A stretch of DNA of 64,000 bases from a virus (IMGVR_UViG_3300046006_001304); one strand, 5' to 3'; shown: positions 1,469-58,070, numbered from the stretch's first letter. Made by a program: numbers and translations. The notes: generated from the sequence alone by a model not told the origin.

Positions 1469-1469
<1 letters not shown>
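1200..1469 (-). CDS. Small fibre-module protein sharing the N-terminal motif of the giant fibre (MTKQVINTGTAANAKNGDPIRTAFEKVNANFDELY)
   Basis: Its N-terminal ~35 aa closely parallel the N-terminus of the 3740-aa protein ([35 protein letters not shown]). Its stop overlaps the upstream gene. Confidence 0.6.
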
Positions 1470-12984
<11,515 letters not shown>

Positions 12985-13040: not shown

Positions 13041-13331
13041 ATGATGTATATTAGCGTTGAATTTGTTAACACTCCGCACTATCGTAAAAGCAAATACGGT
13101 ACAATGCATACCTATATGCGTAAAAAATCAGTATTAGTAATGAGGTGCGATAGTTGCCAAACAGTATTTAGGCGTGACAAGGGCAACATGTCTCCTAAGC
13201 GAGTAAGCGACAAATATTACCATGTGTGTGGTGATTGTGATGCTAAGAAGTTTGCCCAGAGTAAGGGCGTTGAAGCACGGCGAGTTTGGGATATGCCCGC
13301 TAGTAGTCTTAAGACGCTAGGCCAACTGTAG
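13041..13331 (+). CDS. Small zinc-ribbon-like protein (CDSCQ...CGDCD)
   Basis: 96 aa with two CxxC pairs. Convergent with, and overlapping the 3' end of, the SOD-like gene. Confidence 0.4.
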   Translation: MMYISVEFVNTPHYRKSKYGTMHTYMRKKSVLVMRCDSCQTVFRRDKGNMSPKRVSDKYYHVCGDCDAKKFAQSKGVEARRVWDMPASSLKTLGQL

Positions 13332-40125: not shown

Positions 40126-40980
40126 ATGAAAATTGAATACCCGTACAACGATTGGACACCAGTAGTTTTTGGTGATGTTAGGACCTTTACCGATGCTGAC
40201 ATACAACAGTTAGGGGTTGCTCTAGCTGAAGAAATTATGGTCTTATTCAGAGGCCAAACCTTAACTCCCCAAGAAGAAGTTGATTTTGGTGCTCGATTTG
40301 GCACCTTAGAAGACAAATCGATTGTTAATGCTAAAAACAAACGAGCAATTAATATTGACGGTATGGGCGGGCTAATTAGTCGGGTAACTGGCAAATTGAA
40401 TGAAGACGGAATGCCGGGAATACACGGCGGTGTATCTGCGTTAGATTGGCACTGTAATAGAGCTTGGGATAAGAACAGAGATCCTGTTGTGTATTTGTAC
40501 AGCGTCGAAGGTAGCGCAGGAAGTAAGACCAGCTGGGGGAATTATGTAAAAGCATATAACGAATTACCTCAGGAGTGGAAAGATCGACTTGCCAATCTTA
40601 AAGTTAAGACTGCCCAAACATACAGTAAGTATTCTGAGATGGGGAAATATTTTGGAGTTCCAGATCAACCAAGTAATTGGTCAGTTAATATTATTACAAA
40701 AAATCCTGCGGGGAAAACTGTTATATTCTTTCCGTGGAATCAAATGGATGGCATTGCGGATGTATCCCCTGAAGAAGATAAAGAAATTACCGACTTCTTA
40801 ATAAATTATCTACTACAAGAAAAATTCACTTACCATCACGATTGGGAAGACGGTGATATCATTATTGCTGACCAGTGGAGCGGAATGCACAAACGCTGGG
40901 AATTTGAAAAGATGGCAGAACGAGTTTTACATAGAATGGCATTCAACTATGATAAAATTCGCCTGCCAAATCAAACTTAA
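40126..40980 (+). CDS. TauD/TfdA-family Fe(II)/2-oxoglutarate dioxygenase-like protein
   Basis: 284 aa. LDWHCNRA (HxD-type) ... SKTSWGNYVKAYNELPQEWKDRL ... C-terminal His region, parallel to the TauD motif order. Paralogue of 58669..59544. Confidence 0.55.
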   Translation: MKIEYPYNDWTPVVFGDVRTFTDADIQQLGVALAEEIMVLFRGQTLTPQEEVDFGARFGTLEDKSIVNAKNKRAINIDGMGGLISRVTGKLNEDGMPGIHGGVSALDWHCNRAWDKNRDPVVYLYSVEGSAGSKTSWGNYVKAYNELPQEWKDRLANLKVKTAQTYSKYSEMGKYFGVPDQPSNWSVNIITKNPAGKTVIFFPWNQMDGIADVSPEEDKEITDFLINYLLQEKFTYHHDWEDGDIIIADQWSGMHKRWEFEKMAERVLHRMAFNYDKIRLPNQT

Positions 40981-42375: not shown

Positions 42376-43308
42376 TTGATGTACGCACATTATGGAATCA
42401 ACTACGATCCGACCAACTTTAAAATCTGGTATTCTCATTGCCAACGTCCGTCAGCTACGTGGACAGAGGAGATTAAAAAATCTGCTCAAATGTTAGCAGA
42501 CTCAACTGATCGAGATATATGGATATGTATGAGTGGCGGAATTGATAGCGAAGTTGTTGCTAAAACATTTAAAGATTTGGGAATACCATTTCGTGCGTTA
42601 ATAGCTCAGTTTCCAGACAAGTTAAACGAGCATGACATTGTGTATGCTCGTCGATGGTGCGAGTATCACAATGTTGAATATAAATTGTTTGACTTTGACA
42701 TGCTGAACTTTATAAAACAAGGCCACACTAAGTATCTTAAAGATGGACTAGTATCCAATAATATCTTTAGGTATTTTTGTATAGAGATGTTACAATGTAT
42801 TGAAGACATGAACGGTTTTGGAATACTAGGTGGAAAGAGTGTTGGACTTGGGCTATTACAAAAAGATAAAGATATTGTAGATCCCAACAATGATCCAATT
42901 TACGACAGTTATGATATTGGATCATTAGCACCAATAGAATGGTGCCGTAGAAACAATCTTAATCATTGTGTTTTCTTTTATCAAACAAGTTCAGAAATAC
43001 ACAAGGCTTACTTAAATGATCCTATCAATCAAATGTTAATCAATAATCCCTATATGTTGCGAGCTTCATCAGCTAACGAAGCCGCCAAGACATTAATGAT
43101 GAGATCACATTTTCCGTTTACTGTGCCAAGAACAAAGCATCATGGCTTTGAAAAAATTATGGGTATTAGGGAAGAAGCACAGAAAAATATGGCTAGGTAC
43201 TTTGGTCTTGATCCAGAGACTGATAACAAACGTTTTAAGTTTGTATTTTACAATGACCATATATCTATTCCCATAGGACACGTATTGGACCAATTACATT
43301 ATGAATAA
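42376..43308 (+). CDS. PP-loop ATP pyrophosphatase (adenine-nucleotide alpha-hydrolase superfamily) paralogue 1
   Basis: DIWICMSGGIDSEVVAK (SGGxDS P-loop-like motif). 310 aa, no glutaminase domain. Confidence 0.65.
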   Translation: MMYAHYGINYDPTNFKIWYSHCQRPSATWTEEIKKSAQMLADSTDRDIWICMSGGIDSEVVAKTFKDLGIPFRALIAQFPDKLNEHDIVYARRWCEYHNVEYKLFDFDMLNFIKQGHTKYLKDGLVSNNIFRYFCIEMLQCIEDMNGFGILGGKSVGLGLLQKDKDIVDPNNDPIYDSYDIGSLAPIEWCRRNNLNHCVFFYQTSSEIHKAYLNDPINQMLINNPYMLRASSANEAAKTLMMRSHFPFTVPRTKHHGFEKIMGIREEAQKNMARYFGLDPETDNKRFKFVFYNDHISIPIGHVLDQLHYE

Positions 43309-43948
43309 CCCTCAGATATTATTTGCGCTCAGTAGTTTCCATAGTTTTGATTCACGGCTATTGGTAATATCTGATCGTGTATCAATATTAGAATGGCTTC
43401 GAGAAACTATTCCAACATATGAGTTTAGAGTTACTACAAACTTGTTGCCAATGAATGGTTACACTAAAGAACTTACATATACTAATAGTCACCTTTATAA
43501 GACTATAGATCAGAATGTAATGTTACAGAGTAATGCTAACAGCGAGATTGTAGAAATGAGCAACTTATGCAGATCGTGGTACGAAGGTTATATTAAAATT
43601 AATAACACAATTAGTCATCAGCGCAAACATTTGGGCGCCATGTGGATGTTTTCCTTACAAGATGTAGTGTACCAAGAAAAAGTTAAAGAAGCAGAAAAAG
43701 TATTAAACAACCAAACGGAAGATTTGAAATTCCTTCCATCAGAAGCAGGTTATAAAAAGATGTCTCTTCGAGAGCTAGCCGACCGAGTATTAGTAGAACA
43801 CGAAATTGCGATGGGCTTCCTAGCAAGAACTGAACACTTGCGAGTCAAGTGGCTTGACACTTTGAAAGCATCAACTAGCATTGCTAAACACAAAGAGATC
43901 CTAGTAGGGTTTAATAGAGAATTATATGAATACCATCTCATGTCCTAA
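43301..43948 (+). CDS. Hypothetical protein (215 aa)
   Basis: Translationally coupled ORF inside the island. Confidence 0.45.
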   Translation: MNNPQILFALSSFHSFDSRLLVISDRVSILEWLRETIPTYEFRVTTNLLPMNGYTKELTYTNSHLYKTIDQNVMLQSNANSEIVEMSNLCRSWYEGYIKINNTISHQRKHLGAMWMFSLQDVVYQEKVKEAEKVLNNQTEDLKFLPSEAGYKKMSLRELADRVLVEHEIAMGFLARTEHLRVKWLDTLKASTSIAKHKEILVGFNRELYEYHLMS

Positions 43949-45050
43949 TATTTTATTGTTTAACAGTATTGTAGCCGAGGAACAGTTTAGAGGGTTGCCC
44001 GGGGTACATCAGTGGTCTAAGACTAGAAAAATTTGGGGGCATAACGGCTCTATGATTGATCGCACTGGTGTAGTACAGTTGCCGTTTAAAACAGAATTTT
44101 TAGATTCTATGCGGATTCCAGACATCCCTCAGAATTTTTCAAAAACATTAGAACAATGTTGTGTTGAACACGCACGGACAATAGTCGACCAAGCAGTGGG
44201 TACAGATCAAACAATTTCTATACTATGGTCCGGCGGCATTGATTCTACATGTGCGGTGTCTAGTTTCTTAATGTGTACTACTGCCCAAGAACGCACCCGT
44301 ATCACAATCTTACTTAACAGAGAAAGCATTCTTGAAAATACTAAGTTTTATCAAACACACTTGGTAGGGAAATTAAATTGTAAAAGTAGCAACACTTGGG
44401 AATCATATATACGTCCAAATAACATATTTGTCACAGGTGAAGGTGGCGACCAGGTCTGCTGGAACGGGTTTACTAGAGCATCGGATACTATATTCAATGT
44501 ACTAGGATGGGATACGCTTAAACAGTTTGCCAGTGCCGACTTAATGATCAAGGTACTTGAAATGGTAAGCCTTGATAAAGAGTCGGCAACTATAGGGTAT
44601 GAGCGTGTGCTTGAACCCCTAAGGCAAAACTCAGTTGTTCCTGTAAATACAGTCGGCCAGCTATTATGGTATTTTAACTTTGCCGCTAAATGGCAAAACG
44701 TGTATCTTAGAACACTGCTAAACTTAGTAGACAACTCTGTCATAACTGATAACTATATAGCAACGAATTTTAAAATGTTTTTCCAAAGCAGTGATATACA
44801 AATTTGGACTATGTTAAACAATGAAAGCACAGTGTTAGTTAACAAGTTTACAGACATCAAGATGCCGTTAAAGCAAGTAACATATCAGTATGATAAAGAT
44901 GAATACTACAGAGAGCATAAAGTAAAAATTGGAAGTCTAGGACGATTATCACGTATGCGTCCTAATATAGGGTATTTAAAATCTAACTGGGAGTTTTCTC
45001 CAACAGTTGATATTGACCAGTATTACAATAACCAGAATAGTTTTATTTGA
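43926..45050 (+). CDS. PP-loop ATP pyrophosphatase paralogue 2
   Basis: ISILWSGGIDSTCAVSSF. Confidence 0.6.
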   Translation: MNTISCPNILLFNSIVAEEQFRGLPGVHQWSKTRKIWGHNGSMIDRTGVVQLPFKTEFLDSMRIPDIPQNFSKTLEQCCVEHARTIVDQAVGTDQTISILWSGGIDSTCAVSSFLMCTTAQERTRITILLNRESILENTKFYQTHLVGKLNCKSSNTWESYIRPNNIFVTGEGGDQVCWNGFTRASDTIFNVLGWDTLKQFASADLMIKVLEMVSLDKESATIGYERVLEPLRQNSVVPVNTVGQLLWYFNFAAKWQNVYLRTLLNLVDNSVITDNYIATNFKMFFQSSDIQIWTMLNNESTVLVNKFTDIKMPLKQVTYQYDKDEYYREHKVKIGSLGRLSRMRPNIGYLKSNWEFSPTVDIDQYYNNQNSFI

Positions 45051-46492
45051 TGAATAAAAAAGGTAAAGACATAATCATATGGACCGGCATTCCTAAAAGG
45101 TTGCCACAAAAGGTCATCGGGGCTTACCAAGTAGCACATTGGGTACGCCAGCACGGTTATACCGCACAAGTGATTGATCATATTCACAGATGGGACACTG
45201 AAACTATTGTGTCTATGACTGAGCACTTTATTGGTACTGAAACTGTAGCAGTTGGGCTTAGTGCTACATTTATGTTCACGGTAGGTGAAACTGTATCATA
45301 CAAAGATTCAGATATTCCAGAAGCTGCCTTTCCTCGAGCTATCGCAGTTCTAAAAGCCAAATATCCAAAGATTAAATTTATACTAGGTGGCGCAAGTGTA
45401 CGACTAGACTTGTACGAACATAGTGATTTGTTTGATATTAAGTTAGGTGGGTTTGGTGAAGAGACTATTATAGATACTATGGCTAAATTAAAGACCGGCG
45501 GTATACACAAGCGGCCACCGGATATATTTGATATTACTAAGGCATCGCATAGATGGCATAGTGATGACATTATCCAGCCAGGTGAGGCACTACCTATTGA
45601 GATTGGTCGAGGGTGTATTTTCAAATGTAAATTTTGTCGTTACAGATTAACAGGTAAAGCTAAAGGAACATACTTACGAAGTATGGATTGTATCAAAGAA
45701 GAGATTCTTGATAACTATGAGAAATTTGGAACAACTCGTTACTTTTTATTAGACGATACGTTTAATGAAGATGTTGATAAAATTACTGCTTGGTATAAGA
45801 TGTCCCAGTCTTTGCCTTTTAAAATTGAGTCAACTGCCTATACACGGGCTGACCTAGTGTGGTCAACTCCCGAAACAGCTCACATGCTACAAGAAGGTGG
45901 CCTAGTTAGTACGTTCCTTGGGATTGAATCATTCCATCCTAAAGCTAGTATGGCTGTGGGTAAGGGGTGGATGGGCAAGCACGGTAAAACTTGGTTGCCA
46001 CATCTTAAGGATGATTTATGGAAAGGCCAAATGTCCATAACTATGGGATTTATTGTAGGACTACCGGGTGAGCCAGTAGACAGTATGTACGAATCTCAAA
46101 AATGGTTAGTTGATAATAAAATTAACAGTTGGAGATTTAGAACTTTACAAATTACCCCTAACGCTCAAGATTACGATGACGTTAGCGAATTTGAAAGAGA
46201 CGTTGCAAAGTACGGTTATTCATTTCCATATGCTGATGATCCAAATAAATGGAAAACTGATATTATGGATAAGAATCGTGCTAACGAAATACAAGATGAC
46301 ATGTTAGCTAAATCTCGACCGTACATGCGCCACAGTTCTTGGGATCTGCCTGCTATGTTAAGTTTGGGGTATACCTGTGAAGATGTTCATATGAAATACT
46401 TTAATAATCCAATTTGGCAAACTAAGACTGATAGGATTCGACAGTTCTTAAAAACCTACAAGCAAATGATGTTTGCTATCGATGTAGTTTAA
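45047..46492 (+). CDS. Cobalamin-binding (class B) radical SAM enzyme, paralogue A
   Basis: N-terminal Rossmann-like region, then IEIGRGCIFKCKFCRY (CxxxCxxC). 481 aa. Confidence 0.75.
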   Translation: MMNKKGKDIIIWTGIPKRLPQKVIGAYQVAHWVRQHGYTAQVIDHIHRWDTETIVSMTEHFIGTETVAVGLSATFMFTVGETVSYKDSDIPEAAFPRAIAVLKAKYPKIKFILGGASVRLDLYEHSDLFDIKLGGFGEETIIDTMAKLKTGGIHKRPPDIFDITKASHRWHSDDIIQPGEALPIEIGRGCIFKCKFCRYRLTGKAKGTYLRSMDCIKEEILDNYEKFGTTRYFLLDDTFNEDVDKITAWYKMSQSLPFKIESTAYTRADLVWSTPETAHMLQEGGLVSTFLGIESFHPKASMAVGKGWMGKHGKTWLPHLKDDLWKGQMSITMGFIVGLPGEPVDSMYESQKWLVDNKINSWRFRTLQITPNAQDYDDVSEFERDVAKYGYSFPYADDPNKWKTDIMDKNRANEIQDDMLAKSRPYMRHSSWDLPAMLSLGYTCEDVHMKYFNNPIWQTKTDRIRQFLKTYKQMMFAIDVV

Positions 46493-47604
46493 AGTTTGCC
46501 TATAGTGAATGCTGGAGTTCTGCTTGATTTTAAAGAAGCACCCTCTCCATGATAGCTGTTGTTGATACCATCTAACAATCCATTGTAATGATACTTCCAT
46601 GCGTCAATAGTTCTTTCAAACTCTGGATTTTCATATAACCAAAAATCTCTATCAGTACGTGCAGCAGTAGTAGGCTTTCCAGCTTGAAACTTGTTTAAGT
46701 CCCATGTATCTTTGTAACAGATACGCTTGGTTAATTCGTTGTTATATTCTACTATAGTATTTCTATGATGTGCTAAGGGTTCGCGCCACATATATTGTTG
46801 AGCTGACGGGTTTTCTTTATAGAACAAAAACATTTGATATGCCATTTCAAAAGGTAACTCTGGCATAGATGGTGACCAGTAGAATGGTTCAAATGCGCCT
46901 ACAGAGTTTGACGCAATATGAAATGTTATGTCAGTAAAATACATACCAACCATTCCATCACCCCAAGTAGCAACAAACGGTTTATCAAATCCATAAATGC
47001 TAGCAACTGTTTTACCCTTGTCAAGCATACTAGTTGCCACCTTTGGCTTATTTAAATTTCTAAGTAATGCTCCTGCCCCCCAAAATACAGATGTTTCTAA
47101 AAATCTATTGTCAGTGTAATAGTGCTCGGATATATTTTCAGACCAATCGCCTATCTCAATATGTATCTCTGGGTGAGCTGAGCTGAGCCATTTGAGAGTT
47201 GGCTCGACAACAAGGTCCCACTCACTGAGCAAATTTTTAGCTGTTATATCTTGAGTGTTTGGAACATACACTCCGTTACGTATTGTGTGCTTAGGCCAAT
47301 TAACGTATATTTGATCTAATTTAATGCCATTGTTAATAAATGACATTAGAATAGTGTGACTATCTGCGCCGCCCGAATAAAATAATACTAGGTGATCGTA
47401 AGTATCTCTCAGTTGCTGAGCACGTTGCTTGTACAGCATGGACAACGATTGAGTACCCATAAGAGTTCTATCAAAGCTAGCAAACACATGATTATGCCAG
47501 TTCCATTTTATATCAGGACATCCGTTAGTACTAGCATACAATACTGCCTCTCTCTTATTAGTAAAGGTGGTATCTCCAACGGTCCATGTGCCCCAACTAC
47601 TCAT
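46489..47604 (-). CDS. PP-loop ATP pyrophosphatase paralogue 3
   Basis: HLVLFYSGGADSHTILMSF; N-terminus paralogous to 51815..52969. Confidence 0.65.
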   Translation of the reverse strand: MSSWGTWTVGDTTFTNKREAVLYASTNGCPDIKWNWHNHVFASFDRTLMGTQSLSMLYKQRAQQLRDTYDHLVLFYSGGADSHTILMSFINNGIKLDQIYVNWPKHTIRNGVYVPNTQDITAKNLLSEWDLVVEPTLKWLSSAHPEIHIEIGDWSENISEHYYTDNRFLETSVFWGAGALLRNLNKPKVATSMLDKGKTVASIYGFDKPFVATWGDGMVGMYFTDITFHIASNSVGAFEPFYWSPSMPELPFEMAYQMFLFYKENPSAQQYMWREPLAHHRNTIVEYNNELTKRICYKDTWDLNKFQAGKPTTAARTDRDFWLYENPEFERTIDAWKYHYNGLLDGINNSYHGEGASLKSSRTPAFTIGKL

Positions 47605-47606
47605 TG

Positions 47607-47912
47607 TTAGTTGATAGTTTCTGTAATTTCTGAAACAATTCCGTTAACTAAATTGTATTCTTGTCTCTCGGCCCAACCTAGCTTTGAAGTTCTTATTTCA
47701 TGATAGTTGGCATAATTTTCTACAGTGTCAAATACAATAGTAAAAATACGTGTATTATTGTCAACTACTTCCATGGCATTGCTCACGCATCCCGGTAGTA
47801 CTCGAATCTGTTCGTTAAATGTTTTAAGCATTTGGCTATTCTGTTCGCTAACTTCACCAAAAAATTGTGTGTTTGCTGGCTTAGTACTAGTGATTTTTAA
47901 TGTAACTGGCAT
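47607..47912 (-). CDS. Small hypothetical protein (101 aa), possibly Dabb/ABM-like
   Basis: ORF within the minus-strand operon of the island. Confidence 0.4.
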   Translation of the reverse strand: MPVTLKITSTKPANTQFFGEVSEQNSQMLKTFNEQIRVLPGCVSNAMEVVDNNTRIFTIVFDTVENYANYHEIRTSKLGWAERQEYNLVNGIVSEITETIN

Positions 47913-47943
47913 GTTACTGATCTCCTAAAAGTATATTTATCAG

Positions 47944-49386
47944 TCAGTAATTCATTGATCTGCTAAGATAGGTTGTGACTAATTGTTCGTTAAGATTGTC
48001 TTTAATGATTCGTTGATTCATTTCGTAGTATGTGGTGTTTAATACATCTTTATAACTAAATCCAAAATTTCTAATAGCAGAGAGATTCCATACACTGGGT
48101 ACTCGATGTTGCTCAGTACGTTGTTTAAACTTGTTACACCATGCTCCTGCTCTAGCTTCAGTCATAAAGTCAGTTTCCCATTTGCCGCCTACAAATCGAT
48201 ACCCGTGTTTTTCAGGCTCTCTTTCAAAATCACTCATTGCTAGAGTAGGTGACAAGTATAACTTGTTATAGTGAAAGTCGTGTACTCTTGATTTAAAATA
48301 CCATTCAGTTGAGTCGTCCCAATCTTTTTCAGTTTCCTGTCCGAGACCAGCTATCATAGAACATCTAACTATAACATCATCGCCCCATAGCTCTCCAATT
48401 TGCGTAAGCGCAGGTTTATAGTTCTTAGCACCCCACCCCTTACCAATCATGTTACACGATATTGGATCAAAAGATTCTATGCCAAAGTGACAGCTGACTA
48501 AACCAGACTCTGGCAATGATTCAAACTGTTCTGGCCAAATGTTTATTAAATCTAATCTAGCATATCCAATGTATTCTATTTTAAAAGGTAAGTCCTTGGT
48601 CATTTCAAAGAACTTCTGTGTACGTATACGATGTGCGTTTAACGTATCATCAGTAATATGATATCGTGTTGTTCCAAATAAATTGTAATTTGATATCAGA
48701 GATTCTCTAATACACTCCATCGATTTGTTAAAGTCATCCTTATCCTTGCCAATATTAGGGTATTGACAAAACTTGCATTTAAAAATACACCCCCTGCTTA
48801 ACTCTAATGGGAGAGATTCGCCTGGCAGTATAAAATCATTCTCGGCAAACTTCATAGTACAAGTTTGTATATCAAATGTGTTCACAGAGCTGGGATGAAA
48901 TACTCTATTACCGGAACCAATTTGAAATACTGGTGCTACTTCGTTTTTAAATACATGATTACAATACTCTAAAAAAGAATTTTCAGATTCATCTTTAAAA
49001 ACTGCGTCAACTTTAAAAGCAAGCCGTTTATGGCCATACCATAAAAATCCTCTAACAAACTGGCCTCCTATTACAATTTTAACCCACGGAAAATTGTCTT
49101 TGATTTCGTTAAGTATATCAAAGACAGGGCCTTCGCCCTCAGTAATAATTTGTGGACTGTCTAACATTACAAAGGGAGAAAATCCAACAATCTTTGTTTC
49201 TGTGGTTATATACTTTTTAAATAAAGCAAGACGTTGCTCACTAGTCATAAAATATAAAAAGTCTAACACTTGGGTACTGTAACCGTTAGTCCGTAGCCAC
49301 CAAGCAATTTGATAAGGCCCTAAGTATCGAACCTGGCGTAACGGATTAGTATCAGTTGTTAATATTACTACTTGCATTGCTGACAA
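47944..49386 (-). CDS. Cobalamin-binding (class B) radical SAM enzyme, paralogue B
   Basis: LELSRGCIFKCKFCQY; overall collinear with 45047..46492. Confidence 0.75.
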   Translation of the reverse strand: MSAMQVVILTTDTNPLRQVRYLGPYQIAWWLRTNGYSTQVLDFLYFMTSEQRLALFKKYITTETKIVGFSPFVMLDSPQIITEGEGPVFDILNEIKDNFPWVKIVIGGQFVRGFLWYGHKRLAFKVDAVFKDESENSFLEYCNHVFKNEVAPVFQIGSGNRVFHPSSVNTFDIQTCTMKFAENDFILPGESLPLELSRGCIFKCKFCQYPNIGKDKDDFNKSMECIRESLISNYNLFGTTRYHITDDTLNAHRIRTQKFFEMTKDLPFKIEYIGYARLDLINIWPEQFESLPESGLVSCHFGIESFDPISCNMIGKGWGAKNYKPALTQIGELWGDDVIVRCSMIAGLGQETEKDWDDSTEWYFKSRVHDFHYNKLYLSPTLAMSDFEREPEKHGYRFVGGKWETDFMTEARAGAWCNKFKQRTEQHRVPSVWNLSAIRNFGFSYKDVLNTTYYEMNQRIIKDNLNEQLVTTYLSRSMNY

Positions 49387-49981
49387 GATTCTTTTCTCTT
49401 AGTTTATCAATAGTTGAATAATAATGGTCGTATGTTATAGGACCTTTAGTTTTTAACGGGCTCAATTCATAATAACCCATTGATAGTACGTACCTAGTAA
49501 CAGATCCGTAATTAATGCTGTTGTGTGGTATTTGTGTGTTTAACAAATAAAATTGATTAGTCTCGTAATTAAGATTAGTATAAGGAAAATAGATGTAGTC
49601 TCTAGGCATAAACGAATCCTTTTTATGTTCGTGGGCAAACATAACTAAGTACCGGTCATCTTGTGTTAGCATTAAATTAAATGCAGTAGCACGGTACGCA
49701 TCTCTATGCCAATTATAAATGTGTCCCGGTTCTATTAACAGTATTTTTGGGAGTAAATTAAATTCATGTATAAGCTCTAAAATCGGTTCATCCTTAAAAT
49801 ATTCCAACGGAACTTTATGTTGTCTAAACGTGGCTATTACTTCTACATCGTCAGCAATTCTTCCATCTTTACCTTCTCGTTTAGATACATCGACATGCCC
49901 ATAATCAAAAGTTTTACAATCTTCAAATAATTTATTTGTTGGCAACAGTCCTATATTTAATTTTGTAAAACATTCATTCAT
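49352..49981 (-). CDS. AspH-like cupin Fe(II)/2OG hydroxylase
   Basis: IEPGHIYNWHRD ... AFNLML ... FYLLNTQIPHNSIN in AspH motif order. Confidence 0.5.
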   Translation of the reverse strand: MNECFTKLNIGLLPTNKLFEDCKTFDYGHVDVSKREGKDGRIADDVEVIATFRQHKVPLEYFKDEPILELIHEFNLLPKILLIEPGHIYNWHRDAYRATAFNLMLTQDDRYLVMFAHEHKKDSFMPRDYIYFPYTNLNYETNQFYLLNTQIPHNSINYGSVTRYVLSMGYYELSPLKTKGPITYDHYYSTIDKLREKNLVSNASSNINN

Positions 49982-49982
49982 G

Positions 49983-50915
49983 CTACTTCTCCATTTTTGC
50001 TAGTCTTGCTTTACTAGCAGTAATTGTGTCCAATACCCCCTTAGTACCAAACGTTGCACTGATTGTAAAGTCTTTTGCAAACTCTTGCTGAACTTGTTTG
50101 TTACTGATATATTCTTTTAAGAACCCCGACCAGAATTTAGTTACTTCAGCACTAGCGCCAGTCGGTGTTACGACTGCAAATCCGTCAAACTCCTTCCAAC
50201 CTGTATATCTATCTTCTACCACAGGGATTGACATGTAGCCTTCTACTTTTGATTTTGAAGTTGCAACAAGTCGTAACTTGCCCGCATCAATATGGGCCTT
50301 GACAATATTCAACGGTACGTATGCTGCATCAATTGTTCCTGCCAGCAAGTCATTGATTACTGGGCCGCCGCCTTTATATGGAACTGCCAAAGGTTCCTTG
50401 CTTGGTTTAGCAAATTCAAAAAATTGATCCAGTACCATTCGTTGACCCGGAGCACCATATCCAAATTTAACATCGTCTCCACGTCTAACTGCGTTTTCCA
50501 AATCTTCAAGAGTTTTAATTGAACTTTTTGGATTGACTACAAATGCGCCAATACTATCTCGAATACCAGTAACAATCGTACAACATTTTTCAGAGTCTTT
50601 TAATTCTTGATATGCTAATACTCCAGCAGTTGTTACTGAGATATGAAATCCGTCTGTTGGCATAGATGCTAATGCTCGCATGGCAATTAAGCCGTCGGCA
50701 CCTGGCCGATATTCAGCTACTAATTTAATTCCTCTGTCAAGCGCATATTTTTGTAAATGTCTAAATGATTGATCAACTCCACCACCCGGAGCAAAAGGAA
50801 TGATTACAGTTATTGGTTTGGCTGTTGGTTCAAATCCAAAAACGTACGGACTGATTACTGTTAGTAATGAGCTAAGTGTTATTGCGGCAATTGATTTTTT
50901 AGTTTTAAGTCTCAT
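49983..50915 (-). CDS. TctC/Bug-family periplasmic substrate-binding protein
   Basis: Signal peptide MRLKTKKSIAAITLSSLLTV then ...VIIPFAPGGGVDQSFR... (family PxxPGGxxD motif). Start moved to the internal Met with the signal peptide. Confidence 0.6.
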   Translation of the reverse strand: MRLKTKKSIAAITLSSLLTVISPYVFGFEPTAKPITVIIPFAPGGGVDQSFRHLQKYALDRGIKLVAEYRPGADGLIAMRALASMPTDGFHISVTTAGVLAYQELKDSEKCCTIVTGIRDSIGAFVVNPKSSIKTLEDLENAVRRGDDVKFGYGAPGQRMVLDQFFEFAKPSKEPLAVPYKGGGPVINDLLAGTIDAAYVPLNIVKAHIDAGKLRLVATSKSKVEGYMSIPVVEDRYTGWKEFDGFAVVTPTGASAEVTKFWSGFLKEYISNKQVQQEFAKDFTISATFGTKGVLDTITASKARLAKMEK

Positions 50916-50975
50916 ACTGTATTTTATCACTTTTTGATAATATTTCCTACGATTGTGGCAGGCCATAAATAACAG
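50916..50975. promoter_or_regulatory. Short divergent intergenic region between TctC-like (-) and NMO-like (+) genes
   Basis: Only ~60 bp separate the divergent starts. TTGATA hexamer present. Promoters are inferred, not demonstrated. Confidence 0.3.
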
Positions 50976-51818
50976 ATGAATTCATTAGGATCCAAATACC
51001 CAATTATAGCTGCCGCAATGAATCAAGTATCGGATATTCAGTTGTCCAAAGCAGTCAGGCATGCTGGTGGGATTCCTAGCTTGTCTATTTATAATTACAA
51101 AAATAACTTTCAAGGCTTAGTAAACGACCTTATAGATTATAAGAAAGAGTTCAACGACCTTAAACTCTTTTTAAGTGTTGGCGATGCTGAGTTAAAAATT
51201 CCAGCAGTACTTGATTTAATTTTAAAATCTAAAATTGAATTTATAGAATTAATAATTGAAAGTACTAATACGCTAGTTGGACTACAATCTATTACAGATA
51301 ACGGAACAAAAGTATTTGTAAAATGTTTAACCATTGATGGAGTTATCCCCGGAGTCACTGGAGTTATACTTAAAGGTAACGCTGGCGCCGGGCGAGGTGC
51401 TGAAGATTTAGATAACTTATTTCACCAAATTAAAACGCACTACCCAGATCTAAAAATAATTGTATCTGGCGGTATTGGTACTTCTACCCAAGTAAAGCAT
51501 TATATAGACAACGGCGCATTAGCAATATCAATAGGAACATTGTTTGCTGTAGCAGAAGAAAGTAAAATTTCTCTAGAAACAAAACTTAAGATAATTAATT
51601 CTACAAGCACTGATATTTCTCAGTTTAATATTGGCGCAACTCAAAACGCATTAGTTTTTAGTAGTGTAGATAATGACGATTATAATCACACTACGGGGTT
51701 GCACATTGGTATACAGAGTCCAACAGCTGGACATGTATTTGTTGGCACTGCCGTAGACTATATAACTAGCAGTAGGCCAGTAGCCGATATTATTAACGAT
51801 CTAGTAGCAAAATTATGA
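50976..51818 (+). CDS. Nitronate monooxygenase / FabK-like FMN-dependent TIM-barrel oxidoreductase
   Basis: YPIIAAAMNQVSD...AGGIPSLS ... IVSGGIGTSTQV, parallel to NMO/FabK blocks. Confidence 0.6.
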   Translation: MNSLGSKYPIIAAAMNQVSDIQLSKAVRHAGGIPSLSIYNYKNNFQGLVNDLIDYKKEFNDLKLFLSVGDAELKIPAVLDLILKSKIEFIELIIESTNTLVGLQSITDNGTKVFVKCLTIDGVIPGVTGVILKGNAGAGRGAEDLDNLFHQIKTHYPDLKIIVSGGIGTSTQVKHYIDNGALAISIGTLFAVAEESKISLETKLKIINSTSTDISQFNIGATQNALVFSSVDNDDYNHTTGLHIGIQSPTAGHVFVGTAVDYITSSRPVADIINDLVAKL

Positions 51819-52969
51819 TATTAAACTCAACTAGTGTTTATACAGTCGATGGTATAAATTTTGAATCTAAAATTCAGGCTTGCCTATTTGCCAGCCAAGT
51901 AAACAAACCAGTAACTTGGAACTTCAACAAAGAATTTTTTAATACCTACAACTGGTCCGTTGAGCCTGATCAATCGTTGGATGAGTTGTACAATGCGCGG
52001 GCAAGGCGACTTAGAGAAAACTACGATTACTTAGTATTGAGTTATAGTGGAGGTGCTGATAGTCATAACATTTTGATGAGCTTTGTTCGACAAGGATTGA
52101 AAATTGACGAGTTGTTGATTAATCACATGTCTGATGCGTGGAAGAGTCATGTAGTGTTAGACGCAACCCAAACAGCCAGCTGGAATACCGGCGCCGAACA
52201 CGATCTTCATACAATGCCCTTATTAAAAAATATTCAGCATTTAATTCCTAACACCAAGATAACTGTATTAGATTTAAGTCAAAATTTGTTTGACACATTT
52301 ATTAAAGCAGGCGATGCTAGTTGGGTACTAGAAAGAAATGAGGGACTGAATCCATTAAACGTTACAAGATTTAATTACGCATATTTTTCTGATATTAGAA
52401 AACAGTTTGATAAGAATCATAAGATTGCTATGATAGTAGGAATTGATAAACCTAGGCTTATTATTAGCAACAACATTGCCTACTTGTTGTTTAATGACAG
52501 AACTGTTAATATTGTTCCTGTAAAGAATCACTTTGAAGAATATACAAACTCGTCGTTAGAATTTTTCTACTGGAGTCCGGACGCGGTTGATATTATGTGT
52601 AAACAGGCTCATGTTATTAAAAGATTTGTTGAAACAAATATTCAGCACAGATCGTTGTTTGAATGGAATAATAATTACACTTCTAACTTTAGACTATTCC
52701 AGGAAAAAATGTTAAGACAAATACTGTATACTACCTGGAATAAAAGTTGGTTCCAAACTGATAAAGCAGTAAGTGATTGGGACAGCGAATTTGACACGTG
52801 GTTTGCTAAAGGCTACGAGGGACATAAAGCACACACTATATGGAAGGAAGGGTTGACCCACATGATTAAGAATGCCCCAACCTTCTTAAAATATAAAGCT
52901 GACGGAACTCCTGACGGACTAAAAGGATACCTACAGCATTATAAAATTGGACCAATAGTTACTATGTAA
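51815..52969 (+). CDS. PP-loop ATP pyrophosphatase paralogue 4
   Basis: YLVLSYSGGADSHNILMSF. Confidence 0.65.
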   Translation: MILNSTSVYTVDGINFESKIQACLFASQVNKPVTWNFNKEFFNTYNWSVEPDQSLDELYNARARRLRENYDYLVLSYSGGADSHNILMSFVRQGLKIDELLINHMSDAWKSHVVLDATQTASWNTGAEHDLHTMPLLKNIQHLIPNTKITVLDLSQNLFDTFIKAGDASWVLERNEGLNPLNVTRFNYAYFSDIRKQFDKNHKIAMIVGIDKPRLIISNNIAYLLFNDRTVNIVPVKNHFEEYTNSSLEFFYWSPDAVDIMCKQAHVIKRFVETNIQHRSLFEWNNNYTSNFRLFQEKMLRQILYTTWNKSWFQTDKAVSDWDSEFDTWFAKGYEGHKAHTIWKEGLTHMIKNAPTFLKYKADGTPDGLKGYLQHYKIGPIVTM

Positions 52970-53396
52970 CAGCCTTGCCCCAAGATACTCTATTCCATAC
53001 ACGTTCGTGTGTGTAGTATATAATAATATTCATAATAGTAGCAATGGTTAGAAAGGCCACTGCCGCCTTCCATGATCCAGTAGTAAGGTATGGGATCATA
53101 AAGTTATTAAATGTAATCAATGCTCGCCAAGTAATACTCTTACTAATAGTTCTAGGTTGACCGTCCACAAACATATTAGTATCACCGTCTTTACGATTCC
53201 ACTGAGCATAATTCCATGCTCGCTCGTGTAGCCAATGTAAGGTCATATTAACTACCGCGGCAATGCCAAGGATTTGGGCGCCAATGATCCAGCTACCAGA
53301 CACTATAAATCCGTTCAGCAAGTGACTTAACGAAAAACAAACTCTGATAGTTAATGTTTTGGCAATGCTTCTTTTGTGTTGTTCTGTATATTTCAT
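52962..53396 (-). CDS. Small membrane protein (144 aa, ~4 TM)
   Basis: Hydrophobic helices. Confidence 0.4.
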   Translation of the reverse strand: MKYTEQHKRSIAKTLTIRVCFSLSHLLNGFIVSGSWIIGAQILGIAAVVNMTLHWLHERAWNYAQWNRKDGDTNMFVDGQPRTISKSITWRALITFNNFMIPYLTTGSWKAAVAFLTIATIMNIIIYYTHERVWNRVSWGKAVT

Positions 53397-53440
53397 CAGC
53401 TATTTATTTTAGCAGCCTTACGGTATAAAATAAATATCTC

Positions 53441-54277
53441 ATGTTTAATAATCCATCTAAAGTGTTAGCCCATTTGTCGGCTGTAGCAACTGGTAATTTT
53501 GTAACTGCTGAATATATCCTTAACGGTGATAACAGTGGAGTTAATCTATTCCACAGATTTTGCCCACACAGAATGTATCCGCTAGCACAACCGGGTCAGC
53601 ACACTGGAGAAATAGTATGTAAGTTCCACGGCTTTAAGTGGACTGACCGTGGCCAACCTATTAACAACGAACGTAAAATTACGTGTGGTAAAGCAACAGT
53701 TGGAAGATCTGGATTAGTGTTTAAAGACTTTATCGAACCAGAGCATAAGTGGGTAGATATTCTAGCTAGTGAAGATAGATTAGTTTACAGTCATTCTATG
53801 ACCGGTGCTAGTAAAACAGGTAGCTGGTTATGGATGATGGATATACAAGCAGACTTACTACACATCTGGAATGATGGAATACATCCATCGCTGGCCGCCA
53901 GTACTAATCTAGACGATGTTATTATGGATCAAGGTAACGGCTGGGCGTTACAGTACTGCTCAACAGGTTTTTGGTTAGTGTTATATCCTTTTACATTTAT
54001 TGAGTGGAGCCCAGGCTGTCTAGCTATAAATGTTGCTACTCCTAACGACAATAACACCGAATTTGGATTTACTTGGATTACGCAGTTCTATTACGATCCT
54101 AGCACTTCTCCTGAGAAGCGAGCAGACTTTGAAACTTTAGAAGATGTATTCAAAGAAGATGTTGAAGCAGTTGAAACTCAGCGAGGCGGCTACTATCCGT
54201 TAATGCAACCTATTAACAGACTAGAAGACCATTGTGTACATTTTGGTAAATGGGTCACTGAGAATAGATCAGTTTAA
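53441..54277 (+). CDS. Rieske [2Fe-2S] non-haem iron oxygenase-like protein
   Basis: Rieske ligands FCPHR ...(17 aa)... CKFHG. Downstream DLLHIWNDGIH resembles the mononuclear-iron D-x2-H-x(4-6)-H box. Confidence 0.6.
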   Translation: MFNNPSKVLAHLSAVATGNFVTAEYILNGDNSGVNLFHRFCPHRMYPLAQPGQHTGEIVCKFHGFKWTDRGQPINNERKITCGKATVGRSGLVFKDFIEPEHKWVDILASEDRLVYSHSMTGASKTGSWLWMMDIQADLLHIWNDGIHPSLAASTNLDDVIMDQGNGWALQYCSTGFWLVLYPFTFIEWSPGCLAINVATPNDNNTEFGFTWITQFYYDPSTSPEKRADFETLEDVFKEDVEAVETQRGGYYPLMQPINRLEDHCVHFGKWVTENRSV

Positions 54278-55244
54278 GCAAATCAGCTTCTGAATACGTT
54301 TGCTTTTTAGGCGGTATAAAAGGTTTCCATATATACTGCTCGCCAAACTCTACCATGAACGGTGGAAACAATTTTTCTTTATTAGGAACTTGACCTTCAA
54401 ACCCAACAAGCTTCATTCGGTTTAAAAGTGTTGGCCAGTATTCTTGATGAATCCTAGATTTACTACTCACATTGTCTAACTTACCTATTATGCTATCATT
54501 AATTAGTTGCTGGACATATGGCAGTTGTGTATACGCTACTACAATTTCCGGAGAGTATTCGTACCAATCAGTGATAGCAGTACGTCCAATAGTCTTATGA
54601 TACGTTGCCCAATGATGTGGGGCTTCGTCCAGCTCAAATACCCAAGGGTGCTCAGTAGCCATATCTCTGCTAGTTCTTCTATAGTAAGGTTCGCCGCTGC
54701 CAATTATCGGAAGACCGTCTACATACTCTGTCATTTTCATGTGCGGCAACCATCCTGGCCCAGTAGCATAAGACTTAGTCCAGATGTCGTATGCTTCGTT
54801 TTCAAAAAACTTTTCTAAATTAAAATCAATCACACACGGAGTAACATTAAGCTCTTGGCAAATCTTAATAGCGGAGTTGTAATCGTGTACGTTGTGATTG
54901 TTGCTGTACTTACAGATATATACCTTAATTGGAATTTTTAGATCTAAATAAATTCTTAATATTACTTCGCTATCTATGCCGCCTGAAAACAGCAAACTCA
55001 ATTCGCCGTTAAATGTATCTCTGATTGCACATGCGTTTGCCTTTAATTCTTCATAGTAACTTTTTACAGGACGTGTGATTACATTTTTAATTGTACACTT
55101 AAATTCTGCCGTTGGATCTAACTTAGGGCCATACTCAGAGCCGTCATTGTAAGTCCACGATAACCAATTATCTCGATAAAACATATTGCCCCATTTGATG
55201 TGACCAGCGATGTGCACCTTGAAAAGTAATACCGTGTACAGCAA
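54255..55244 (-). CDS. PP-loop ATP pyrophosphatase paralogue 5
   Basis: ELSLLFSGGIDSEVILRIY. Confidence 0.65.
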   Translation of the reverse strand: MLYTVLLFKVHIAGHIKWGNMFYRDNWLSWTYNDGSEYGPKLDPTAEFKCTIKNVITRPVKSYYEELKANACAIRDTFNGELSLLFSGGIDSEVILRIYLDLKIPIKVYICKYSNNHNVHDYNSAIKICQELNVTPCVIDFNLEKFFENEAYDIWTKSYATGPGWLPHMKMTEYVDGLPIIGSGEPYYRRTSRDMATEHPWVFELDEAPHHWATYHKTIGRTAITDWYEYSPEIVVAYTQLPYVQQLINDSIIGKLDNVSSKSRIHQEYWPTLLNRMKLVGFEGQVPNKEKLFPPFMVEFGEQYIWKPFIPPKKQTYSEADLLKLIYSQ

Positions 55245-55749
55245 CCCATTGCTTACAACTTTCCGGAACAGGATCTAACGATCCGCATACATTATATTTG
55301 TCCTCAGCCATATAAAATTTAACTCCACAATTAGTTTCAATTAGATCTAAGTAATGTTTAAACGCTAAGGGATTATGTTCTCTGCTGATAAACACACAGT
55401 CTAAACCTAGTATCTGTGCTTTGGCCATTTGTAAGGGCAAACAATAGGTTGTATTGAGAAACTTGTCCCCACCGGTAAATTTACCTTTGTGTCTGTAGTC
55501 AGGATGTATCCACATACGAGTACTTACCCGCCCGACACCCGTACCCCACTTAGTGTCACTCAATTGTAAAGCACTAAAACAGACAATTTGATCGTCAATT
55601 ATCACTACTGGAAAGCAGGCAAAGTCACGTGGGTCTAACCCTATGTAATTATCTTTAAGGCTATCATTAGTAGTTGCTAGATATTTTTGGTACTGATCCC
55701 AGAGTTCCTGATCAAAATTTGTAGCAAAGTCAATTATTGTTCTTACCAT
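55168..55749 (-). CDS. Hypothetical protein (193 aa)
   Basis: Overlaps downstream gene by ~77 nt, so its true start may be internal. Confidence 0.4.
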   Translation of the reverse strand: MVRTIIDFATNFDQELWDQYQKYLATTNDSLKDNYIGLDPRDFACFPVVIIDDQIVCFSALQLSDTKWGTGVGRVSTRMWIHPDYRHKGKFTGGDKFLNTTYCLPLQMAKAQILGLDCVFISREHNPLAFKHYLDLIETNCGVKFYMAEDKYNVCGSLDPVPESCKQWVAVHGITFQGAHRWSHQMGQYVLSR

Positions 55750-56597
55750 ACGATATTTACTTAAATACTACCATGCCTAAAATAAATTCATTTCTCTATT
55801 ATATTCTCTATCCTGTACACGCACTAGCATGGATTGGCGTTATTGCTTATTCATTTTTCTTTGACTTTACGTGGACAAACTTCTTTCAATTGTTAGTTGG
55901 ATGGATTATAATTGAGGGGTTGGGGGTTGCTGTAGTCTTACACAGATATGTAAGCCATAAGGCGTTTGAGGCTCGCCCTGGATTAAAGCCAATCTTACTT
56001 TGGATTAGTTGCTTGTCCTTGCAAGGGAGTCCACTAGGTTGGGCCGCAGTACACAGAGGTAGTCATCATAGATACACGGATACAGAAAAAGACGCACATA
56101 CTCCTACTAAGGGATGGTGGTATTCTTGGCATGCTTGGCTATATGATTGGGATCAATACTTTAACCCTAAGTACGTAATTGATCTAGTTAGGGATCCTAT
56201 ATACATGTGGTTTGCTAAACATTACAATGCTGTTATTATCGGAACCTACATAGTTGTAGGACTGTTTAGTTGGCAGTTGTTACTATTTGGATTTATGATA
56301 CCGGCTGCTATAAGTTTGTATATGGAAAGTAATATTAATGTATTCTGTCACACCCCCGGAATTGGTTACAGAAATTTTGAAACTAAAGATGCTAGTCAAA
56401 ACGTGCCGTTTCTAGCATTGATTACTTGGGGACAAGGCTGGCACAATAACCATCACGCAAAAGCAAGTTCATATGACTTTGGTACAACAGTAAGTGGCAA
56501 CAAAAAAGAGTGGGATCCTAGTTTAATATTCCTTCCGTTAATTGCTACAAAAGAAAGTCGTGAGAAAATTTACAATGACCGACTTCACCCACAATAA
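55737..56597 (+). CDS. Membrane fatty-acid (stearoyl-CoA/delta-9-type) desaturase-like di-iron enzyme
   Basis: Three His boxes in the canonical order and spacing of SCD-type desaturases: HRYVSH (HxxxxH), HRGSHHRYTDTEKDAHTP (HxxHH + DxH), GWHNNHH (HxxHH). Four hydrophobic spans. Confidence 0.8.
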   Translation: MFLPYDIYLNTTMPKINSFLYYILYPVHALAWIGVIAYSFFFDFTWTNFFQLLVGWIIIEGLGVAVVLHRYVSHKAFEARPGLKPILLWISCLSLQGSPLGWAAVHRGSHHRYTDTEKDAHTPTKGWWYSWHAWLYDWDQYFNPKYVIDLVRDPIYMWFAKHYNAVIIGTYIVVGLFSWQLLLFGFMIPAAISLYMESNINVFCHTPGIGYRNFETKDASQNVPFLALITWGQGWHNNHHAKASSYDFGTTVSGNKKEWDPSLIFLPLIATKESREKIYNDRLHPQ

Positions 56598-57486
56598 TCA
56601 TTTAAAGTATACTATAGGTCAAGGACAGTATCGTAGTACATCTATAGAAAAGTATAATGTTCAGTTAGGCACAATAGACCCTGATAGATATGCCTGTAGC
56701 TCGTATACTGATGAACTACATAGGACCGCTGAACTAGTGCGCACGGATTTAGGCAACGACCTAGTACTATTCCTATCAGGCGGAACTGACAGTGAAATTG
56801 TTCTACGTAATTTTATACATACAGGATTTAAACCACAGTGCGTTGTCCTACGGTTTGAAAACAATTACAATGCCGGCGAGGTAGCAGAAGCACAGGCTAT
56901 TGCTAGTGAACTAGATGTAAAGTTAAACATTATAGATTTTGATGTACATGACTTTTACAACTCCGGCGAAGCAAAAGAATTTGGTAATCAAATACAATGT
57001 ACACAATTGACATACAATATGGTCTACAAAAGTATATTAACTCTGGGTGCGCCCGCAGTAATGGGCGGTGAAGCACTATTAACTAGGCAAGTAAGTACAA
57101 CAGATAGTTATTGGTATTATACGTTTCGTGAAAACGAAGATGCTAGTGCTATGCGCTTTACTAACAAGTTTAGTATACCGTTAGTTAACGAATGGTTTAG
57201 TTACACACCCGAGTTGTTACTCTACTATCTAGAGCACCCCAGCATTAAAGAATTAACTACTAGTACTAACTATAAACTAACATCTGCGTCTAGTAAGAAC
57301 GCTATCTTAAAACAACTGTATCCTAATTTTAGAACTAAGAAAAAGATACACGGGTTTGAAAGTTTGTTAGCATTTAACCTAACGGCTTATAAGGACTTAG
57401 GACATGATCAAGTTAAGAGGTTAGAGTTTAGCTTGGATGGTGTTGAATACACGCAAGCAATTGCACAACTTAAAGGCCAACAATGA
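56575..57486 (+). CDS. PP-loop ATP pyrophosphatase paralogue 6
   Basis: DLVLFLSGGTDSEIVLRNF. Start placed at the internal MTDF Met to limit overlap with the desaturase. Confidence 0.65.
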   Translation: MTDFTHNNHLKYTIGQGQYRSTSIEKYNVQLGTIDPDRYACSSYTDELHRTAELVRTDLGNDLVLFLSGGTDSEIVLRNFIHTGFKPQCVVLRFENNYNAGEVAEAQAIASELDVKLNIIDFDVHDFYNSGEAKEFGNQIQCTQLTYNMVYKSILTLGAPAVMGGEALLTRQVSTTDSYWYYTFRENEDASAMRFTNKFSIPLVNEWFSYTPELLLYYLEHPSIKELTTSTNYKLTSASSKNAILKQLYPNFRTKKKIHGFESLLAFNLTAYKDLGHDQVKRLEFSLDGVEYTQAIAQLKGQQ

Positions 57487-58070
57487 TTGTAGAATTAGGT
57501 CAAACACACAAAGAATTAATTAAGCCTCTTTTTTATAGAGACACTTATATGGGCATGGACCTAAGCTCTAACTATATTGTTGACCCCAGCGAAAAAGTAC
57601 AAACGGTATTTTACAATACGTTTGTAGATACATACCTATCTGGTCTACGTAACTACAAGGCTTTAGGCTTAGTTGAAAATGGCGTAGTAAAATCACTGAT
57701 ATCATTTTATATGAGCCCAGATGAACCTTGTTGGTACGGAACAATGATCCGTAGTCTTAATGATAAGAACTATGTACGACCACTATTAGATTCAGCGATG
57801 GCATTTAACGAGACTCGTGGCCGTTTAAAGTTTTACACTCTTTGGAATGCCGACCACGGTAAATTACTACGTAGATTTGCGTTTAGCACAGTCGCAAACA
57901 CTCGTTACGATTATGTAGATGAAATACTAGTACCAGCAAGGACTAAATGTGTTTACACTAACTACTGGCAAATACTGTTTAACAGAACTTTACTGCCCGT
58001 TGACAGTGTTGTACGCTGTACCTTTTTAAAACAAGAATACAGAACTACTCCTATAGGAGGTAATATATGA
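57483..58070 (+). CDS. Hypothetical protein (195 aa)
   Basis: Translationally coupled ORF. Confidence 0.45.
   Translation: MIVELGQTHKELIKPLFYRDTYMGMDLSSNYIVDPSEKVQTVFYNTFVDTYLSGLRNYKALGLVENGVVKSLISFYMSPDEPCWYGTMIRSLNDKNYVRPLLDSAMAFNETRGRLKFYTLWNADHGKLLRRFAFSTVANTRYDYVDEILVPARTKCVYTNYWQILFNRTLLPVDSVVRCTFLKQEYRTTPIGGNI

Follow-up and report, generated by a model that had tools for sequence, protein, structure and literature searches.

Six putative stand-alone asparagine synthetase-like PP-loop genes of three families in an accessory island of an uncultured aquatic jumbo phage

Asparagine synthetase B (AsnB) and human asparagine synthetase (ASNS) carry an SGGxDS PP-loop in their synthetase domain (PF00733; PDB 1ct9 and 9b6c), together with an N-terminal nucleophile (Ntn) class II glutaminase domain (Cys-1) and an ammonia tunnel. 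The related beta-lactam synthetase (1jgt) and carbapenam synthetase CarA (1q15) both keep a dead N-terminal domain of ∼200 amino acids (aa). Lasso-peptide cyclases of the McjC/LarC type are AsnB-derived, ATP-dependent lactam formers with non-functional or absent glutaminase activity, and they need a precursor peptide, a recognition element (RRE) for ribosomally synthesized and posttranslationally modified peptides (RiPPs) and a B protease. NH3-dependent NadE, QueC and LarE are stand-alone PP-loop enzymes. Here we describe six PP-loop genes from a viral stretch of 64,000 nucleotides (IMGVR_UViG_3300046006_001304), referred to below as the window, which an earlier note had described as six paralogous ATP pyrophosphatases in one phage locus. 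With moderate confidence, we read these genes as encoding stand-alone Asn-synthetase-type synthetase domains that would adenylate various small-molecule or lipid carboxylates, with amide or lactam formation to follow.

The six open reading frames (ORFs) were found where the note had placed them. They are named here by their first coordinate and listed with the family (A to C) and subfamily (PP number) to which we assign them; residue numbers refer to the longest ORFs.

42376..43308, plus strand: family A copy, subfamily PP7; 310 aa, PP-loop SGGIDS at residue 53
43926..45050, plus strand: family C copy, subfamily PP6; 374 aa, SGGIDST at residue 102, AsnB-like TGEGGDQ at residues 170-176
46489..47604, minus strand: family B copy, subfamily PP3 (11 members); 371 aa, SGGADS at residue 77
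51815..52969, plus strand: family B copy, subfamily PP0, the most widespread; 384 aa, SGGADS at residue 78
54255..55244, minus strand: family A copy, subfamily PP2; likely start 55184, 309 aa; SGGIDS at residue 87
56575..57486, plus strand: family A copy, subfamily PP5; 303 aa; SGGTDS at residue 79

A six-frame regular-expression scan of the window detected exactly six S-G-G-x-D-S motifs, one in each of these ORFs (in gene order SGGIDSE, SGGIDST, SGGADSH, SGGADSH, SGGIDSE and SGGTDSE), where residue composition predicts 0.02 by chance; over 2000 shuffles the count averaged 0.02 and never exceeded 2. The first residue of the motif lies between positions 53 and 102, not 40 to 90 residues from the N terminus as had been stated. 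In all six proteins it follows a hydrophobic beta-strand near the domain N terminus, as is typical of the PP-loop ATP pyrophosphatase superfamily, and the Rossmann-like alpha/beta/alpha nucleotide-binding fold of this superfamily was also recovered in structural models of one A and one B copy. The matches are genuine PP-loops and not fortuitous, and downstream Lys, Asp and Glu residues are conserved family-wide.

The proteins span 303-384 aa. The start ATG of 56575 is backed by orthologues of 303-306 aa, while the true start of the 54255 gene is probably 55184 rather than 55244, giving the 309-aa product called on identical metagenome contigs. The 42376 gene may similarly start at the ATG at 42379, because the product called on identical metagenome contigs has 309 aa. 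Profile scans gave no glutamine amidotransferase (GATase) match, in line with the absence of such a domain noted earlier, and the stretch ahead of the PP-loop domain would leave no room for one: in structural models of one A and one B copy, ∼45-60 residues precede the PP-loop helix and strand.

All-versus-all BLASTP sorted the copies into three groups, namely, family A (42376, 54255 and 56575), family B (46489 and 51815) and family C (43926). Members of family A are similar over their full length (E values of 1e-12 to 1e-21, 19-27% identity; 42376 gave 1.6e-16 to 54255 and 2e-12 to 56542), the two B copies match with an E value of 1.4e-33 and 28% identity, and 43926 has no BLASTP link to the other five. 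Similarity between A, B and C is confined to 43-55 columns around the PP-loop, with hhalign probabilities of 65-77% for shallow alignments; a diverse family C alignment raised the probability in the PP-loop region to 88.6% for A and 94% for B. The designation "six paralogues" thus stands at the level of the superfamily and fails beyond it. Nor are 46489 and 51815 the recent paralogues for which they had been taken, given their low identity and their placement in separate orthologous subfamilies, both of which can be found together on other contigs. Each window copy in fact falls into its own subfamily at 35% identity (at least 17 multi-member subfamilies overall), and this separation, together with the low BLASTP identities, led us to reject recent duplication within the locus. 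Judged by these comparisons, the six copies are six anciently diverged orthologous subfamilies from three families, each of them shared by many uncultured viral contigs, and not a recent tandem expansion.

AlphaFold2 (AF2) models were analyzed for 51815 (mean predicted local distance difference test score [pLDDT] of 90) and 56575 (pLDDT of 88). The best structural matches of both the A and the B model were the C-terminal synthetase domain of AsnB, beta-lactam synthetase and CarA. In the structural comparison of the 51815 model, AsnB scored 11.3, beta-lactam synthetase 10.5 and ASNS 10.2 (240-260), followed by PAPS reductase with 9.7 and TilS with 9.6. The match runs past the PP-loop core into the AsnB-type C-terminal helical subdomain. 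Of the QueC, Asn-synthetase and PAPS-reductase types between which the note had left the choice to further analysis, families A and B thus belong to the Asn-synthetase type, as seen in the model of one copy each.

At the sequence level, hhalign placed family A against residues 210-349 of AsnB, a stretch that begins ahead of the PP-loop and reaches the SGE with Glu-348. The equivalent residue of human ASNS, Glu-364, is needed for activity (PMC6748925). At this position, 56575 has GGE, 54255 has SGE and 42376 has GGK. An invariant G-E-x-x-D-Q-(L-F-G) motif of family C aligns, weakly (E value of 0.016), with S-G-E-G-S-D-E-V-F-G of AsnB. Two A copies and C thus appear to share with AsnB and ASNS a Gly-Glu motif at the catalytic Glu-348 position. 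The phage proteins differ from these enzymes in lacking the Ntn glutaminase domain and the ammonia tunnel; sequence identity is 8-12%, scores are below the Pfam cut-offs and the Asp-binding residues could not be mapped. It is almost certain that the six do not all use aspartate as substrate. In contrast to the beta-lactam synthetase and CarA systems, no CarB- or CEAS-type partner and no sign of a beta-lactam product were seen here, and none of the additional components that lasso-peptide cyclases need was detected at the phage locus.

The SGGxDS loop is invariant or nearly so within the A, B and C alignments of metagenomic homologues. Family-wide conservation in A extends to a Glu before the loop, one Asn and two C-terminal Lys residues, and in B to D98, E128, D153, G209-x-x-K212-P213, D228, E249 and K317. 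No Cys column reaches 50% in A and a single one (59%) does so in B, and none of the three families has a conserved Cys. The by-eye absence of QueC zinc cysteines is thereby borne out, and for A and B the lack of conserved Cys excludes QueC-type zinc sites and LarE/TtuA-type sulfur chemistry. The catalytic Cys of LarE is likewise absent from the phage proteins.

Stand-alone PP-loop enzymes provide the best sequence-level matches to the N-terminal 60-90 residues of family A. Matches to QueC, Asn_synthase, NadE, MnmA and LarE, all below threshold, cover these first 60-90 domain residues; QueC scores were 18.8-21.8 bits against a cut-off of 22 and spanned only profile positions 3-68 of 210, and for 42376 the weak QueC, Asn_synthase and NadE matches were all under the cut-off. 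Searched against the PDB, the family A profile gave E values of 6.6e-5 for NadE, 4.5e-3 for QueC and 8e-3 for LarE, while family C gave 0.0057-0.016 for LarE and 0.075 for ASNS. PADLOC returned only weak matches to the QueC core. The likeness to NadE, QueC and LarE is confined to the core, and their structural scores are below those of the AsnB type. By motif and profile, family C is a PP-loop protein.

All three families are large. With an E value cut-off of 1e-3, family A (56575 type) comprises 782 and family B (51815 type) 795 clusters at 90% identity, and an exhaustive hidden Markov model (HMM) search for family C yielded 1,790 representatives at 50% identity (665 at E values of at most 1e-30), compared with only 25 from a word-indexed search. 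No relatives were found in 50,697 GenBank phage records by tblastn with four of the six proteins or by megablast with the locus. Pattern-based scans of 185,579 GTDB species genomes detected nothing for A or B, where the sensitivity of the patterns limits a virus-only claim; the same family B patterns found 140 relatives in IMG/VR, and the diverse family C alignment was too variable for such a scan. In BFVD, family B matched solely entries named "Uncharacterized protein [uncultured Caudovirales phage]". These entries (such as A0A6J5TD96 and A0A6J7WGK7) are true family B members by Foldseek (E values of 1e-21 to 7e-31, TM-scores of 0.67-0.88, 22-27% identity) and are unannotated, with no functional information. 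On present sequence data, the families appear to be restricted to viruses, so far to uncultured aquatic viral contigs. In IMG/VR, the label GVMAG (giant-virus metagenome-assembled genome) is attached to one relative, L082, a contig of just 11 kb on which a TctC gene and three family B-like genes lie.

The phage label given to the locus is well founded: the window contains tRNAs, a phage-type ATP-dependent DNA ligase, an endonuclease and a tail-fibre fragment, and the relatives are IMG/VR viral contigs. The identical locus is present on metagenome contigs, with the identical 43926 protein on a contig of 275,918 bp, and no close cultured relative was found. The source is an uncultured aquatic jumbo phage.

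The six genes are embedded in an island together with the following genes.

40126..40980, plus strand: TauD-family Fe(II)/2-oxoglutarate (2OG) dioxygenase (Pfam TauD, 2.6e-29), at the left edge of the island
40977-42335, minus strand: polytopic membrane protein of 452 aa (sole match PHROG 20720) that could be a transporter
45047..46492, plus strand: B12-binding (class B) radical S-adenosylmethionine (SAM) protein (Pfam Radical_SAM), directly downstream of the family C gene
47944..49386, minus strand: second class B radical SAM protein, 32% identical to 45047, in a minus-strand operon ending with 46489
49983..50966, minus strand: TctC-like (Bug family) solute-binding protein (Pfam TctC, 2.3e-19) with an N-terminal signal peptide
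50976..51818, plus strand: NMO/IMPDH-like flavin mononucleotide (FMN) TIM-barrel protein (Pfam NMO, 4.3e-11), whose stop overlaps the 51815 start
52962-53396, minus strand: DUF2061 membrane protein, inside the island
53441..54277, plus strand: Rieske non-haem iron oxygenase alpha-subunit-like protein (Pfam Rieske and Ring_hydroxyl_A)
55168..55749, minus strand: GNAT-like protein (hhalign to a Pfam-positive GNAT cluster, 83% probability, E value of 8e-6), directly upstream of the 54255 A copy
55737..56597, plus strand: membrane fatty-acid-desaturase-family protein (Pfam FA_desaturase, 2.3e-16), directly upstream of 56575
57483..58070, plus strand: protein of 195 aa, always after the PP5 subfamily gene (pairing seen in L007, L009-L011, L025 and L027)
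58067-58672, plus strand: LpxO/Asp-Asn-beta-hydroxylase-like cupin
58669-59544, plus strand: second TauD-family dioxygenase, directly after the LpxO-like cupin

The 57483 protein had no match in Pfam, PHROG or PDB sequence searches and the 55168 protein no PDB sequence match, and their families are unrelated to each other. An Rfam scan of the locus revealed no riboswitch and no other RNA element. The best NCBIfam match of the 45047 radical SAM protein was the PhpK family, and a weak one (65 bits against a cut-off of 600 bits); the phosphonate-pathway lead that it offered (PMC8942020) came to nothing.

We surveyed the gene context in 87 fetched loci (numbered with an L) using local HMMs and clustering. 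At least two family members within 10 kb on either side were found in 73 of them, with a maximum of five. TctC-like proteins were the commonest neighbours (44 loci) and the most frequent ones of the PP0 subfamily, followed by NMO-like proteins (33), class B radical SAM proteins (29), fatty-acid desaturases (25) and family C (23); 2OG-Fe(II) oxygenases, GNATs, fatty-acid hydroxylases, GDSL lipases and DSP phosphatases also occur in relatives. Several modules recur: PP0 with TctC, with or without NMO and the PP1 subfamily; PP5 preceding the 195-aa 57483 family, GNAT-like and desaturase genes being close by; family C with the B12 radical SAM gene after it; and c28 followed by PP4. GNAT-like genes recur beside both PP2 and PP5. 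The closely related locus L009 is missing everything between 42 and 50 kb of the window (PP7, PP6, both B12 radical SAM genes, PP3 and TctC) and retains the right-hand modules in unchanged order, and we thus conclude that modules are gained and lost. An N-terminal hydrophobic, Sec-type signal segment was seen in 32 of 37 viral TctC-like homologues compared with 2 of 85 family B proteins, which suggests a periplasmic role for the TctC-like partners and implies a diderm host.

The link to GNATs includes a natural fusion (P0392, L089:8001-9686) in which residues 1-362 form a family C domain and residues 460-541 a GNAT domain (28.2 bits against a Pfam cut-off of 20.7 bits); it adjoins a family A gene on a huge-phage-like 51-kb contig. 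The same contig encodes ribosomal protein S21, IF3, ClpX, ClpS, HSP20, phosphoribosyl pyrophosphate (PRPP) synthetase and a CHASE2-guanylate cyclase, and a 457-aa double-GNAT protein lies near P0392. The PP1 subfamily, which is family A-like, occurs in 38 loci and is absent from the window, stands beside PP0 (in L033, L037, L069, L054 and others), directly upstream of the family B gene (for example, at L033:9024-9959). Its loop often reads SSGLDS or SSGIDS, the first Gly being replaced by Ser, and PP1 may be a partner subunit or have a variant ATP site. In one group of relatives (L057-L062 and L073-L078, at ∼6-10 kb in each locus), tail-fibre-like ORFs, Gly-rich collagen-like ORFs and a prolyl-hydroxylase-type 2OG oxygenase come directly before the family B gene, an adjacency that hints at virion-protein modification.

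In the proposed architecture, a PP-loop ATP pyrophosphatase core would be joined to an AsnB-type C-terminal helical region, with a short N-terminal extension in place of the Ntn glutaminase. By analogy with the fold family, MgATP would bind on the SGGxDS loop, the substrate carboxylate would be adenylated with release of pyrophosphate and an amine would attack the acyl-adenylate, yielding an amide or a lactam. Because there is no glutaminase partner, the attacking group would be supplied by free ammonia, by some other amine or by an amine that the substrate already carries. Every subfamily is accompanied by a partner set of its own (PP0 with a secreted TctC-like carboxylate-binding protein and an NMO-like flavoprotein, PP5 and PP2 with GNAT-like, desaturase and 195-aa proteins and C with the B12 radical SAM protein), and the copies therefore most likely act on different substrates within a modular accessory island. 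The idea of serial ligations onto one scaffold is accordingly not favoured, the copies being separate gene-pair modules gained and lost independently between related phages; the substrate-diversified family that the note had offered as its other option fits better. Since the steadiest partners are solute-binding proteins, flavoproteins, Rieske and TauD proteins and lipid-type enzymes, we infer that small molecules or lipids are likelier substrates than proteins.

Several observations weigh against this proposal. No copy reached the gathering score of Asn_synthase (PF00733), two A copies scoring 18.1 and 11.5 bits against 21; the B and C window copies have no Asn_synthase match in Pfam, and 4 of 62 family C members match it weakly (best E value of 0.0023). 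Beyond the PP-loop, B and C lack any significant Pfam, NCBIfam or PDB sequence match, family B giving nothing at all in profile searches of the three, and the C-terminal half of family C matched nothing in the PDB search or in hhalign to A and B. The Glu that aligns with AsnB Glu-348 gives way to Lys in 42376 and is not family-wide. Conserved C-terminal Lys residues exist, and yet by-eye C-terminal matches to AsnB (PFLD and K449) have no statistical support: Smith-Waterman comparison of the C-terminal halves with AsnB 386-480 gave z values of -1.0 to 1.2, and these equivalences were dropped. Rerunning hhalign at permissive settings did not lengthen the alignments. Finally, the partners point in different ways, toward lipid enzymes, peptide-type radical SAM proteins and, in some relatives, tail fibres.

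Some of these partners would suit a peptide- or protein-modifying role in the style of the lasso cyclases, in which Asp or Glu side chains or C termini of a phage or host protein would be adenylated to form an isopeptide, macrolactam or amide. Virion fibres or a RiPP-like precursor would be possible targets, further modified by the radical SAM proteins and hydroxylases. Lasso cyclases are established AsnB homologues, the window contains two class B radical SAM proteins, one SPASM radical SAM protein and three Asp/Asn-beta-hydroxylase-like cupins, and the tail-fibre-like and collagen-like neighbourhood of PP0 in one relative group, with its prolyl 4-hydroxylase (P4H)-type oxygenase, points the same way. 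However, Pfam and PHROG scans of the neighbours revealed no lasso precursor, no RRE/PqqD-like protein and no transglutaminase-like leader protease of the B type, although small unannotated ORFs could still be precursors, and the commonest partners are of the small-molecule or lipid type (TctC-like, NMO-like, Rieske, TauD and fatty-acid desaturase and hydroxylase). We regard protein modification as unlikely but still plausible, given the radical SAM and hydroxylase genes and the tail-fibre adjacency in some relatives. Modification of tRNA, or of phage DNA bases as anti-restriction hypermodification, by TilS-, QueC- or ArcS-like activity appears improbable. Its attraction lies in the phage context with nearby tRNA genes and in the weak family A matches to QueC, TilS and MnmA, including that in PADLOC; but these matches, under the cut-off, span only the 60-90 residue PP-loop core, whereas the best full-length structural matches are AsnB, beta-lactam synthetase and CarA. 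Zn-binding cysteines are not conserved, and DpdA/TGT, QueD/E or an RNA-binding domain was not detected in the scanned ORFs.

The missing cysteines also bear on sulfur transfer of the LarE, TtuA, ThiI or PAPS-reductase type, where the adenylated carbonyl or carboxylate would be thiolated. LarE is the best PDB sequence match of family C and is among those of A, but no family has a conserved sacrificial or Fe-S-binding Cys, neither a cysteine desulfurase nor a sulfur carrier was seen among the scanned neighbours and AsnB-type proteins rank above over far longer alignments, which makes this route very unlikely. That the six lack catalysis altogether and serve as PP-loop-like scaffolds or regulators is highly improbable. 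While the altered loop of the neighbouring PP1 subfamily and the Lys of 42376 would fit such pseudoenzymes, all six copies keep the full SGGxDS, and in every family, over hundreds of divergent sequences, no block is better conserved than this loop, as expected for active ATP sites.

Going beyond the ligase proposal for the six genes, we tentatively raise the possibility of a modular viral toolkit in which three glutaminase-less ligase families, radiated into dozens of subfamilies in uncultured large aquatic phages and apparently nowhere else, together with phage B12 radical SAM, Fe/2OG, Rieske, desaturase and GNAT enzymes and a secreted carboxylate-binding protein, might make or remodel undescribed amide metabolites or lipids during infection. 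Our literature search turned up no account of these families, nor of Asn-synthetase-like genes present in several copies in phages. The fold and the class of chemistry are known, and it is the stand-alone architecture, the three families and their multi-copy, modular deployment in phages that appear to be undescribed. If the proteins are active ligases, large aquatic phages hold a sizeable, diversified and uncharacterised set of ATP-dependent amide- or lactam-forming enzymes. Because Pfam and NCBIfam do not recognize B and C, both are overlooked when phage auxiliary metabolic genes are surveyed in the standard way. The fixed pairings with TctC-like proteins, GNATs (including the fusion), membrane desaturases and the B12 radical SAM protein offer handles for finding the substrates, and the pay-off could include a novel type of metabolite or membrane remodelling directed by viruses, as well as new amide-bond-forming biocatalysts.

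Elsewhere in the window, a 3740-aa ORF (1469-12691, minus strand) without a Pfam or PDB sequence match may encode a giant structural or fibre protein. Three further radical SAM proteins are encoded upstream of the island, all on the minus strand (24102-25406, 18807-19976 and 19963-22404). In the first, the SPASM domain (residues 24-88) is N-terminal to the radical SAM core (residues 136-288), the opposite of the usual order, and in the last, a protein of 813 aa, the core is located at the C terminus. The minus strand also encodes an Fe/Mn superoxide dismutase (13309-13869), a Bax1-I/YccA-like membrane protein (26272-26967) and an Asp/Asn-beta-hydroxylase (LpxO)-like cupin (22401-23069). One tRNA, at 63233-63306, was detected by Rfam only and not by ARAGORN. 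A Ro/TROVE-like protein (DUF7788 and DUF2828, phrog_850) adjoins three tRNAs (61241-62719 and 63233-63780, both on the minus strand).

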